From the UHGV virus genome UHGV-0379599: a stretch of 35,664 nt of DNA; one strand, 5' to 3'. The notes under the pieces are model-generated. The model was not told the DNA's origin, made no database searches, and saw only the letters and a list, made by a program, of their open reading frames with translations. Origin of the DNA: a virus. Positions within the stretch are counted from its first letter, which is position 1; each line of letters opens with the position of its first letter. This document shows, one piece after another, positions 14,748-16,656 of the stretch. The translations under genes and the position numbers were made by a program.

Positions 14748-15278
14748 TCAGCCAACAAATTTAGCAACAAATACAGCAACCGCCGCCGTGAAAATGGTTG
14801 TGCATACTGGCACAATAATGCCACTCCAACGCCACTTCGTATTATCATCAACCTTGTCAAACCGCCGATTCATCTCATCCATAATCTTGTCAAAGCGTTT
14901 ATCCATCGCTTCGGTAAGCTCACCCTTCAGGCTGTTAATGTCTGATTTGAGCTGCTCTTTCAGGTGAGCTGTATCAGATTTAAGCTCACCTTTCAGATTC
15001 GCAATATCGCATTTAAGATCACCTTTCAGATGAGCAATGTCTGCTTTGAACTCACCTTTCACCTCACCAACATCGGCTTTGGTTGAGAGGTTTGTAGTGC
15101 GTTCAGCAAGCGTCGCAAGGTCGTTTCTTGTTAGCGATAAATCACCTTCGAGCCGCTCAATTCGCCTTTCAAGTTTATCTGACATTCCGCCTCCACTATC
15201 ACCGCCTCCCCCATCGAAAGAGTTGCCAATGTCCTCACGAATAAGGGTTATGCCATGCTCACTTTTAGCATATGCCAC
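14748..15278 (-). CDS. Tail-anchored coiled-coil membrane protein with tandem 11-residue repeats (176 aa), unknown function
   Basis: Gly-rich N-terminus (GGGGDSGGG), heptad/11-mer repeat region (KGEFKADIAHLKGDLKCDIANLKGELKSDTAHLKEQLKSDINSLKGEL), C-terminal hydrophobic helix (WSGIIVPVCTTIFTAAVAVFVAKFV). Start abuts the stop of the upstream ORF. Confidence 0.6.
   Translation of the reverse strand: MAYAKSEHGITLIREDIGNSFDGGGGDSGGGMSDKLERRIERLEGDLSLTRNDLATLAERTTNLSTKADVGEVKGEFKADIAHLKGDLKCDIANLKGELKSDTAHLKEQLKSDINSLKGELTEAMDKRFDKIMDEMNRRFDKVDDNTKWRWSGIIVPVCTTIFTAAVAVFVAKFVG
14915..15065. repeat. Imperfect tandem 33-bp repeats (about 4-5 copies) encoding the 11-aa repeats of the coiled-coil protein
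   Basis: Recurrent ...TTAAGCTCACCTTTCAG... / ...TTTAAGATCACCTTTCAG... / ...TTTGAACTCACCTTTCAC... units on +. Confidence 0.55.
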
Positions 15279-15677
15279 TCAGATTCCCTCCCAAACTATA
15301 TATCCTTTGTCTCTTGCCCAACAAACAACTGTGTGGGCTGTATATGTGGATGTGAAGCCGCAATAAGAACATGACACTTCATACCGAGTATTGTAGATGT
15401 TAATGGGCTCGTTCTCCTTGTGTATGGGAGTGACATATTCCCAATCATTTGAATCATCATAATCATCAAGTTCAGGGTCTGTGCCGTGAACAACCGTATG
15501 TGGAATAAACAAATCTGGGCGCCCACACGAGAGACAAGAGGTTCTGGCTCCTCTATCTTTGAGGAATTGAATAAATAATTTGGGCGAAATCTGTTGCAGA
15601 ACCTGCAAATGCCCACGTTCATTATCATTAAGAGACCTGTCTGCATATGGAAAATCATCAAATTTAAGAGGCTTCAT
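15279..15677 (-). CDS. Hypothetical zinc-ribbon protein (two CxxC pairs: CLSC ... CSYC); start uncertain (15677, 15686 or 15692)
   Basis: AT-richer ORF overlapping the 3' end of int by 14-29 nt; GGAG 9 nt upstream of the ATG at 15677; Cys pairs about 60 residues apart. Confidence 0.55.
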   Translation of the reverse strand: MKPLKFDDFPYADRSLNDNERGHLQVLQQISPKLFIQFLKDRGARTSCLSCGRPDLFIPHTVVHGTDPELDDYDDSNDWEYVTPIHKENEPINIYNTRYEVSCSYCGFTSTYTAHTVVCWARDKGYIVWEGI

Positions 15678-16656
15678 ATAAGGCATCTCCAAGGGGATTA
15701 AATCTCACCGCATCCTGCAGGTAATCCGGCGCAAGATGGGCATAAATCATCGTTGTCTGAATCTTTGCGTGCCCCAGAATTTTCTGGAGCGTCAGAATAT
15801 TGCCGCCGTTCATCATGAAATGACTGGCGAAGGTGTGGCGCAGCGCATGAACAGCCTGGCCGTCAGGAACATCAGGTGCGACCGTTTTGATGACATCGCG
15901 AACCAATGAATAATCCAGCGTCGGAAACACCAGTTTCCCGCCCCGTTTTTTGATCTTTTCAAACAGGCTTTCAGAAATAGGAACGGTACGGTTTTTGCTG
16001 TTCTTCGTTTTTGAAAAAGTGATTCGACAATGAAGAACACGGCGCTGCTCCAGTGCCGCTACCTCGCCCCATCGCGCCCCGGTCGATAAAAGGATTTCGA
16101 CAGCCAGCCGTTCATCGGGATTTTCAGCCAGTGCATCCAGCAACTGAACACATTCAGACTTACTCAGATATCCCATTTCGCGCTCGTTAACCTTCATTCC
16201 TTTAAGGCCTTGAACGGGGTTATCGTTAAGAAAATGGCCGGATGAGATGAGTGCGGTAAACATCGCGCTTAACGCCCCAATCTCTCGATTAATGGTGCTG
16301 GGCTGTATCCCCTGCTCTATCCTGGACACACGTAGCTCGGTGAGCATCGTTGTATTAAGTTTATGCACACACGGGTCATCCATTGCCTCACTCAAGCGCA
16401 GCAATTTAAGGCGCGTGTTATGCCCTGACTTCATTAGCTGGCCGTGGTATTTCCACCACAAGTCAATAAGCACCGACAGCGGACGGCGATCAATGGAGTT
16501 TCCTTTCCACTCATTGTTATGCTGTTGCGCCAGCACCCACCGCTCATATAAAACTGCATCCGATTTCGTTTTAAATTTTTTGCGAATGCGTTTGCCTTTA
16601 CGCCCCTCAGGGCGCATGTCAAGAAGATACCCTCCCGGAATTGATTTTATGCTCAT
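15664..16656 (-). CDS. int: Tyrosine recombinase / phage integrase (start taken at MSIKSIPGGYLLDMRPEG; ORF open to 16806)
   Basis: C-terminal catalytic region with R..H..RHT(F)ASH ... LGH....TMIYAHL (final Tyr) typical of the phage integrase family; adjacent to and co-directional with the repressor gene, as P2 C-int. Confidence 0.9.
   Translation of the reverse strand: MSIKSIPGGYLLDMRPEGRKGKRIRKKFKTKSDAVLYERWVLAQQHNNEWKGNSIDRRPLSVLIDLWWKYHGQLMKSGHNTRLKLLRLSEAMDDPCVHKLNTTMLTELRVSRIEQGIQPSTINREIGALSAMFTALISSGHFLNDNPVQGLKGMKVNEREMGYLSKSECVQLLDALAENPDERLAVEILLSTGARWGEVAALEQRRVLHCRITFSKTKNSKNRTVPISESLFEKIKKRGGKLVFPTLDYSLVRDVIKTVAPDVPDGQAVHALRHTFASHFMMNGGNILTLQKILGHAKIQTTMIYAHLAPDYLQDAVRFNPLGDALYEAS

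Follow-up and report, generated by a model that had tools for sequence, protein, structure and literature searches.

The window analyzed here is the whole 35,664-nt stretch of UHGV virus genome UHGV-0379599, a P88/P2-like phage genome (Peduoviridae, Xuanwuvirus-like) in the attP (excised) permutation. In it, the gap between the tyrosine integrase gene int and attP is occupied by two open reading frames (ORFs) on the minus strand, ORF1 and ORF2, which are predicted to encode a cytosolic zinc-ribbon protein and a tail-anchored coiled-coil membrane protein (Table 1). A preliminary description of the window had placed two minus-strand ORFs directly downstream of int, the first overlapping the int stop codon by 14 to 29 nt, the second abutting the first, and both lower in G+C content than int. 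All of these statements were borne out. The open frame of ORF1 (15279 to 15692) begins with a TTG; the likely start is the ATG at position 15677, which has a GGAG upstream and is the start chosen by the Prokaryotic Genome Annotation Pipeline (PGAP) in three related genomes. The overlap with the int stop codon (15664 to 15666) amounts to 14 nt if translation begins at the ATG and to 29 nt if it begins at the TTG at 15692. The GTG start of ORF2 follows directly on the TGA of ORF1, in the same frame. The G+C content is 41.6% in ORF1 and 45.8% in ORF2, compared to 49.1% in int and 51.9% in the window.

The two CxxC pairs of ORF1 that had been noted before are C48/C51 and C103/C106. All four Cys were conserved without exception among 38 close and 25 distant homologues, and F38, G107, and W120 are also invariant in the family, the consensus of which is ITPxxFxxFLxxKGV...CxxCG......Y....CxNCGF...[YF]xAxxVxxWL. 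The two knuckles are 51 residues apart and lie inside a larger alpha/beta domain, the N-terminal helix of which carries FxxFL. The AlphaFold2 (AF2) model of ORF1 is confident, with a predicted local distance difference test score (pLDDT) of 83.8 and a predicted template modeling score (pTM) of 0.79, and has two N-terminal helices, a four-stranded sheet bearing both knuckles (strands 60-63, 79-82, 97-103, and 109-113; pLDDT of ~90 near the second knuckle), and a C-terminal helix. With two conserved CxxC knuckles on beta hairpins in this model, ORF1 is a zinc ribbon with predicted metal binding. An exhaustive profile search (E <= 1e-3) returned 334 representatives of 50%-identity clusters; the family members among those listed have 49 to 180 amino acids (aa), and none of them is fused to another domain.

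ORF2 contains the Gly-rich stretch, the 33-bp/11-aa repeat, and the C-terminal hydrophobic segment that had been described before. Its N-terminal peptide (hereafter the N-peptide) is predicted to be disordered on its own. A Gly/Asp-rich tether leads from it into two helices, the second of which carries a tandem repeat that Tandem Repeats Finder (TRF) reports with period 33, 3.2 copies, and a score of 119. The predicted membrane anchor is preceded by KWRW, followed by four residues, and has a mean Kyte-Doolittle hydrophobicity of 2.43 over 19 residues; an AF2 helix (residues 145-175) spans it, and P157 and V158 are invariant. Since ORF2 has a tail anchor and no signal peptide, the stalk should be cytoplasmic. 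In DUF1640 proteins, the C-terminal stalk begins with a beta-layer motif, [aliphatic]-A-T-K-[polar]-[D/E] (Hartmann et al., PMC4786415). The corresponding residues of ORF2, L64-S65-T66-K67-A68-D69, deviate from this consensus at two positions, with Ser for Ala at position 2 and a nonpolar Ala at the [polar] position 5. Relatives come nearer, with FATKSD as a full match and LSTKTD, which retains the Ser. T66, K67, and D69 are nearly invariant among ORF2 homologues, and the AF2 model has a helix break at residues 63-66. By analogy with other beta-layer coiled coils, the ORF2 stalk is probably trimeric.

The ratios of nonsynonymous to synonymous substitution rates (dN/dS) were 0.16 to 0.30 for ORF1 and 0.35 to 0.39 for the ORF2 core; therefore, both are under purifying selection. 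The ratio for the short N-terminal extension of ORF2 was 0.36 to 0.72. In Pfam, NCBIfam, and PADLOC, no match of ORF1 rose above noise, and the matches of ORF2 were only coiled-coil noise. The only solid matches in PHROGs were phrog_4293 for ORF1 and phrog_9415 for ORF2, both of unknown function. A profile search of PDB sequences with ORF1 gave a best E of 0.22, and its predicted fold had no match in the PDB; in BFVD, Foldseek found an unnamed 87-aa protein (best E 4.8e-3) and then TFIIS-type ribbons. A relationship of ORF1 to Ogr was considered and rejected, for its Cys residues are spaced differently and Ogr_Delta gave no match. ORF2 matched holin and spanin families (E 0.004 to 0.03) and holin and haemolysin families (E 0.004 to 0.02) in PHROGs at the level of coiled-coil noise. 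The homology to structural or lysis proteins that the preliminary description had named as a ground for abandoning its reading was thus not found at a significant level, and ORF2 was rejected as a spanin or holin on topology and gene context.

Existing annotation of either protein stops at "hypothetical" or "DUF1640." PGAP often omits ORF1; in the locus L001 and in other RefSeq genomes, a 478-bp unannotated gap remains between "DUF1640" and int where ORF1 was skipped. Since ORF1 is missed in several genomes, annotation-based surveys of this slot would undercount the pair.

Table 1. Positions of the gene pair, its parts, and other features in the window
Feature	Position	Strand	Basis or remark
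ORF1, 132-aa cytosolic four-Cys zinc-ribbon protein (phrog_4293; predicted)	15279..15677	-	
ORF1 Cys codons	15534-15536, 15525-15527, 15369-15371, 15360-15362	-	
ORF2, 176-aa tail-anchored coiled-coil membrane protein (DUF1640/CCDC90-like; predicted)	14748..15278	-	
ORF2 N-peptide, residues 1-21, AYAKSEHGITLIREDIGNSF	15216..15278	-	pLDDT below 50
ORF2 Gly/Asp-rich tether, residues 22-31, then Met32	15183..15215	-	
ORF2 helix, residues 32-62			AF2 model
ORF2 L-S-T-K-A-D, residues 64-69	15072..15089	-	approximates beta-layer motif
ORF2 helix with 11-residue units KGELKxDxAxL, residues 67-140			AF2 model
33-bp tandem repeat encoding KGELKxDxAxL	14957..15061	-	TRF
ORF2 C-terminal transmembrane anchor, residues 154-172	14763..14819	-	hydrophobicity, AF2 helix
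int, tyrosine integrase	15664..16656	-	last 14 nt overlap ORF1 start
C-type helix-turn-helix (HTH) repressor	16706..17014	-	first gene of the same-strand operon; rightward early operon beyond
attP arm, int side	14639..14747	.	conservation among prophages
attP core and rho-independent terminator	14614..14638	-	prophage junctions, terminator scan
hok/mok-like locus	14020-14490		between ogr and attP
ogr	13759-14019		
Low-GC PIN_12 gene	12604-13674	+	between gpD and ogr
gpD	11189-12430		
ParM/StbA actin-like segregation ATPase	23466-24425	+	
StbB-like plasmid stability protein	24295-24741	+	

The pair in other temperate phages

Co-occurrence of the two genes, a check that the preliminary description had proposed, was examined in a set of 20 distinct loci. 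Some of the ORF1 homologues in this set were only ~15 to 25% identical to ORF1 of the window, and the loci came from E. coli, Salmonella, Klebsiella, Raoultella, Serratia, Aeromonas, contigs of gut and environmental origin, and phage records. In 19 of the 20, the gene after the ORF1 homologue encoded a single-pass membrane protein whose N-terminal part is a cytoplasmic coiled coil, and in nearly all loci the ORF1 stop and the partner start overlapped by 4 to 14 nt or abutted. Three types of partner could be told apart. Type A is DUF1640-like, with the motifs ...GGDGGGGM-x-x-LE[KR]RVERLE... and [LF][AS]TKxD and a KWxW before the transmembrane helix. Type B is XhlA-like and is marked by RMESDISYIKRDI... 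and GLAGLMARGFGWI. Type C has TREE[IF]DAKLxxIExRMD... and a longer tail past the transmembrane helix.

After a repressor, after int, and beside arc/ant are the classic places for accessory or exclusion genes that are expressed in the lysogen, and the pair was found in each of them. In P2-like phages the order C-int-ORF1-ORF2-att occurs at the ihfA/btuC site and at at least four other integration sites in other genera. The pair follows directly on an S24 cI-type repressor in locus L026, the order is cI-HIRAN-pair in L036, and in L019 cI is followed by two small genes and the pair, with recT/yqaJ downstream. In Salmonella phage SPN3UB and its relatives, an arc/ant immI-like region adjoins the pair (gp24/gp25), and an Arc gene also flanks the pair in L033-35. 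The SPN3UB record (L037) and that of Klebsiella phage ST101-KPC2phi6.1 (L038) are of lambdoid size (~48 kb), and the pair stands there in a moron region between the arc/ant immI-like cluster and the tape-measure gene. In an Aeromonas prophage, a single gene separates the pair from an HTH repressor-like gene, and int comes after the pair. In the Aeromonas hydrophila prophage L009, a gene at 3188-3991, downstream of the repressor-like gene and upstream of the pair, encodes a 267-aa coiled-coil protein with a transmembrane segment of its own and a weak Flk_N match, which may be a third component in that lineage. No locus examined had the pair beside lysis genes; it lies in immunity or integration operons on the repressor strand. 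In a 2026 survey of thousands of P2-like prophages, the integrase-att interval was reported to be a minor defense hotspot, with 3% of the recognizable systems (PMC13586616).

Phages of the window type are integrated between ihfA and btuC in ~300 complete E. coli genomes, and the window was compared with prophages at this same site. The att arm and int were 96 to 99% identical throughout. The swapped segment extended from the ORF2 stop (14748) into the last 8 to 10 codons of int (breakpoint 15683-15695). In ETEC4067 and MS6193, the replacement was another version of the pair; in O111 11128 (O111:H-), the slot held an unrelated single 131-aa gene without Cys pairs or a transmembrane segment; and P88 is without the cassette. 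On these alignments, the pair is exchangeable cargo, one of several fillings of the int-attP slot, and the earlier wording that it is "fused onto" int did not survive the comparison. The O111 11128 prophage (L006) is degraded, with a truncated int and IS1203 nearby.

A smaller exchange was seen in O103:H2 12009 and in many O145 and O157 strains, in which only 15206-15687 was replaced, that is, ORF1 and the ORF2 N-peptide. The replacement carries a 166-aa ORF1 variant of ~25% identity and a different N-peptide; the tether, stalk, and anchor remain 98.5% identical at the DNA level. The recombination breakpoint is at ~15198-15206, and the N-peptide stays with ORF1. Moreover, across the four ORF1 classes compared, the N-peptide type tracked the ORF1 type, and stalks were common to classes. 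Since the N-peptide travels with ORF1, the simplest reading would be that ORF1 binds the N-peptide and that the Gly/Asp tether is the module boundary. Even if the pair is not a defense system, these cassette swaps are a natural experiment on which parts of the two proteins must travel together.

The stalk of ORF2 is polymorphic in length. Near-identical copies from E. coli and Salmonella (P0187-P0237) differ by exact multiples of 11 residues (33 bp). ORF2 homologues have 143 and 154 aa, with the window protein (176 aa) two steps on, and lengths of 170, 181, and 192 aa were also found; counted from the internal start described below, the lengths are 112, 123, 134, 145, and 156 aa. In E. coli 300709 (L031; NZ_CP025903.1), an element of the IS3 family of insertion sequences (IS) lies in the 3' end of the ORF2 homologue and swaps the transmembrane anchor for unrelated residues, a natural anchor knockout. 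The truncation hits the transmembrane segment and not ORF1 and is uninformative either way on a toxin-antidote relationship of the two proteins.

PGAP usually annotates ORF2 from Met32, as a 145-aa protein named "DUF1640" or "CCDC90 family." The possibility that Met32 is the sole start and the Gly-rich N terminus an artifact was rejected on the conservation of the frame upstream of Met32, in which indels keep the frame and the encoded peptides are related. In all relatives checked, the ORF2 frame reached the ORF1 stop or ran beyond it without interruption, a 6-codon in-frame indel is tolerated, and a Klebsiella copy has the same stop-GTG junction (TAA-GTG) and a related N-peptide (VAALKRDRGITLL against VAYAKSEHGITLI); E. 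coli variants have related N-peptides as well. Met32 itself may nevertheless be used. G29 and M32 are nearly invariant among ORF2 homologues, and the Gly and Asp codons upstream of Met32 spell GGAGG 4 nt before the ATG. The duplex of this Shine-Dalgarno (SD)-like sequence with the 16S 3' end was predicted at -6.6 to -10.6 kcal/mol in eight of nine type-A loci (Met32 and the SD-like sequence were noted in the window and in L002, L003, L008, L012, L020, L030, L032, and L037), and type-C partners likewise retain a Met where the coiled coil begins. From these sequence features, a second, internal start of ORF2 is possible, which would give two isoforms, a long one bearing the tip and a short one lacking it. 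The SD-like sequence before Met32 also explains why PGAP and other gene callers shorten ORF2.

Attachment site and neighboring genes

Window positions 14181-14638 match the ihfA-side end of the prophages and positions 14614-16828 the btuC-side end. The 25 bp common to both junctions (14614-14638) are therefore the att core. In NZ_CP098203.1 the core sequence is present at both prophage junctions, and the window carries both arms contiguously. Read on the minus strand, the core consists of GGCCGCTCTGCGGCC and a run of T residues; this is a rho-independent terminator that duplicates the one of the host gene ihfA. A terminator scan gave no convincing terminator ahead of the attP core in the C-int-ORF1-ORF2 stretch, and the att-core terminator is the probable 3' end of a C-int-ORF1-ORF2 transcript, as judged from the sequence. 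Because the attP core copies the ihfA terminator, integration regenerates two terminators, one after ihfA and one after the C-int-cassette operon just upstream of btuC. The adjoining stretch of ~110 bp (14639-14747; 32% G+C) was 96 to 99% conserved among the ~300 E. coli prophages integrated between ihfA and btuC, independently of what fills the slot. It would be the int-side attP arm, with a role in binding Int and integration host factor (IHF) inferred from P2 biology.

The window also carries other accessory genes. The hok/mok-like (MokW-type) host-killing locus is 93 to 98% identical in P88-like phages and ~82% identical in Shiga toxin (Stx)-converting phages; in the NZ_CP098203.1 prophage (L029), an IS3 is inserted beside it. 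The low-GC gene between gpD and ogr (33% G+C) encodes 356 aa with an N-terminal PIN_12 domain (E 2.9e-20) and had no match in PADLOC or in function-annotated PHROGs; it looks like a separate moron and a possible defense candidate. The genes for the ParM/StbA ATPase (E 6e-82) and the StbB-like protein (E 4e-24) lie in the hotspot that separates the replication gene from the portal gene. With hok, they make up a plasmid-style maintenance kit on an integrating P2-like phage. Rfam at gathering thresholds gave no match in the whole window.

Possible functions of the pair

The reading that we tentatively favor, at somewhat less than an even chance, is that the pair is a Rex-like membrane-tethered exclusion or abortive-infection module of a temperate phage. 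Transcription from Pc would run through C-int-ORF1-ORF2 in lysogens and end at the att-core terminator. The zinc-ribbon protein would dock on the N-peptide of ORF2, and the complex would sit on the cytoplasmic face of the inner membrane of the lysogen with ORF1 at the tip of the probably trimeric stalk, a prophage-encoded exclusion or abortive-infection device following the logic of lambda RexA/RexB. In such a device the fast-diverging zinc-ribbon subunit would provide specificity or sensing, and the stalk with its transmembrane segment would anchor the complex or perturb the membrane. The purifying selection on both genes, their abutting or overlapping stop and start codons, the operon context, the partnership in 19 of 20 loci, the cassette swapping, the report of a defense hotspot, and the predicted cytoplasmic stalk support this reading. 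Of the superinfection-exclusion or defense module put forward in the preliminary description, the part that gained is the module itself, a conserved and translationally coupled unit in repressor, int, and arc/ant contexts; the picture of a fixed appendage of int has to be given up.

Several observations speak against an exclusion module. Neither protein resembles a known defense or exclusion component in PADLOC-DB 2.0.0, which covers systems up to 2023, and neither has a recognizable enzymatic or pore-forming domain. Many morons expressed in lysogens are unrelated to phage defense. In L027, a 147-aa ORF1 homologue stands without a coupled partner; it adjoins Csy genes, and a small protein with two hydrophobic segments is encoded 186 nt on. 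Solo DUF1640-like genes occur in the Liberibacter phages SC1/SC2 and in APSE-2 with no ORF1-like gene adjacent, and eukaryotic DUF1640-like members are mitochondrial scaffolds; thus, the stalk protein need not be a defense effector. Finally, the docking of ORF1 on the N-peptide is suggested by co-variation only.

A different role is conceivable for the same architecture, in which the membrane stalk sequesters or releases a zinc-ribbon factor that binds nucleic acid or protein, and the released factor tunes prophage maintenance or induction, Int activity, or host physiology. Such a lysogenic-conversion or regulatory module would agree with the tie of the pair to repressor/integrase operons (in Aeromonas the pair even lies between the two), with the weak matches of 4 of 25 family members to Zn_ribbon_13, a family described as nucleic-acid binding, and with the action of other tail-anchored coiled-coil proteins, such as MCUR1, as tethers or scaffolds; ElaB/YqjD are further tail-anchored coiled-coil tethers or scaffolds. 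We consider it unlikely, albeit worth keeping in mind, since the cassette is dispensable (absent from P88 and replaced by an unrelated gene in O111), since it is swapped like cargo between prophages with 96 to 99% identical int and C, which is unusual for a core regulator, and since neither protein has an HTH or another known regulatory domain. If ORF2 were instead a membrane-damaging toxin of the holin or XhlA type that is restrained by the zinc-ribbon protein, the pair would stabilize the prophage by addiction. The gene order and coupling would then fix the stoichiometry of both proteins, type-B partners weakly match Pfam XhlA, ORF2 has the weak holin and haemolysin matches given above, and the same phage has other maintenance genes (hok-like and ParM/StbB). 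These matches, however, are coiled-coil noise far under the curated thresholds, the putative antidote is encoded ahead of a much longer, highly charged stalk for which a simple membrane toxin would have no use, and the solo DUF1640-like genes of other phages lack an adjacent ORF1-like gene; we regard an addiction function as quite improbable.

More improbable still is an accessory role in lysis during lytic growth, in the manner of PBSX XhlA or of a holin/antiholin pair. The weak XhlA, holin, and spanin-like matches and the conserved internal Met with its SD-like sequence, which recalls dual-start holin/antiholin genes, would fit, but the pair lies in immunity/integration operons on the repressor strand and in none of the loci examined in a lysis cassette, the P2-type late region of the window is located elsewhere, and a cytoplasmic stalk with a C-terminal anchor is the reverse of the i-spanin topology. 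That the two frames are nonfunctional or chance ORFs in an attP-proximal spacer might be concluded from the omission of ORF1 and the shortening of ORF2 by PGAP in several genomes. The dN/dS ratios of 0.16 to 0.39, the invariant four Cys, F38, G107, and W120, the 334 clusters at 50% identity, the confident ORF1 model, and the partnership conserved across phage types leave this with almost no probability, and by these conservation data it is effectively refuted.

The exclusion or abortive-infection reading can be taken further, to a proposal that we hold as doubtful: the pair would be the founding example of a widespread, unrecognized two-component exclusion or abortive-infection system made of a tethered, diversifying zinc-ribbon sensor and a trimeric, tail-anchored, repeat-tuned stalk, with 334 clusters at 50% identity and members in both P2-like and lambdoid phages. 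Gain and loss of 11-residue repeats would tune the length of the stalk, possibly as a molecular ruler on the cytoplasmic side of the membrane, where phage genomes enter, and the internal start would yield a tip-less isoform that modulates the complex. If true, the zinc-ribbon tip on a membrane stalk of variable length would be a compact new architecture of prophage immunity, it would be the first function for prokaryotic DUF1640/CCDC90-like proteins, and the int-attP interval and the post-repressor positions would host the same module across unrelated temperate phages. The role of the mitochondrial relative MCUR1 is itself still debated. The pair is tractable: it is smaller than 1 kb, E. coli lysogens that carry it have been sequenced, phage records such as that of Salmonella SPN3UB contain it, and there are natural variants that differ in nothing but the ORF1 and N-peptide module or in repeat number alone.

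Relation to known systems

ORF1 and ORF2 have several partial counterparts among known systems. Generic zinc ribbons (Zn_ribbon_13/DUF2082 and TFIIS-type) share with ORF1 the two CxxC knuckles on a beta-hairpin framework, with matches of 4 of 25 ORF1 family members to Zn_ribbon_13 at E ~1e-3 and Foldseek matches to TFIIS-type ribbons at E > 0.004, but the window ORF1 itself matches no Pfam family. The DUF1640/CCDC90-like proteins (PF07798; including MCUR1 and CCDC90B) resemble ORF2 in the coiled-coil stalk and the predicted C-terminal transmembrane helix after the coiled coil, and their beta-layer motif is approximated by L-S-T-K-A-D of ORF2. ORF2 scores 24.8 bits against PF07798, below the gathering cutoff of 33.5 (E 2.3e-5), and several ORF2 homologues of 80 to 96% identity carry a precomputed PF07798 match. 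In contrast to DUF1640 proteins, ORF2 has an extra N-peptide, a Gly/Asp tether, variable 11-residue repeats, and a zinc-ribbon partner. We know of no function for any prokaryotic DUF1640 member.

XhlA (PF10779) likewise combines a short coiled coil with a C-terminal hydrophobic segment. Raoultella type-B partners carry a weak precomputed XhlA match, and Pfam gave no XhlA match for the window ORF2. The XhlA protein of Bacillus PBSX is encoded in a lysis cassette next to holin and amidase genes and is without a zinc-ribbon partner, whereas the pair lies in an immunity operon. The tail of ZorA from Zorya has a long cytoplasmic coiled coil on a membrane anchor, and ORF2 has weak PADLOC matches to it (E 5e-5 to 0.011) in coiled-coil sequence only; unlike ZorA, ORF2 has no channel domain of the MotA/ExbB type, is ten times smaller, and is not accompanied by ZorB, ZorC, or ZorD.

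The superinfection-exclusion genes (P22 sieA, lactococcal sie2009, HK97 gp15, and PdpSau) are similar in encoding small membrane-anchored proteins expressed from the lysogeny module. Of these genes, sieA lies beside immI and sie2009 between the repressor gene and int, and the pair has comparable locations, adjacent to int, to a repressor gene, or to arc/ant. A report on the Staphylococcus protein PdpSau presents it as a membrane-anchored prophage protein that causes abortive infection (PMC10127798). These are single proteins, in contrast to the obligate-looking pair described here, and searches of PHROGs and PADLOC revealed no homology to them.

The suggestion in the preliminary description that the pair does not belong to a described system held in every search. 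The pair is absent from PADLOC, Pfam, NCBIfam, function-annotated PHROGs, and PDB sequences and folds and, by these sequence and fold comparisons, is no described system there; in PADLOC-DB 2.0.0, ORF1 had no match and ORF2 matched ZorA, LmuB, and LeoBC only at the coiled-coil level. Literature searches found no description of the pair, and the text of the DefensePredictor preprint mentions no matching system.

The closest parallel is in gene order. Like lambda RexA/RexB, ORF1 and ORF2 are a soluble and membrane pair downstream of a repressor gene on the same strand and in the same putative operon (C-int-pair in the window; L026, L036, and L019), and distant relatives are at exactly the RexA/RexB position. 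No homology of ORF1 or ORF2 to RexA or RexB was found in Pfam or PADLOC. RexB is a polytopic membrane protein, whereas ORF2 is a predicted single-pass, tail-anchored coiled coil, and the soluble partner is a zinc ribbon of ~100 to 170 aa. As an accessory pair in an immunity operon and expressed, as its position would predict, in the lysogen, the system is of a familiar kind; its proteins and their architecture are unfamiliar.

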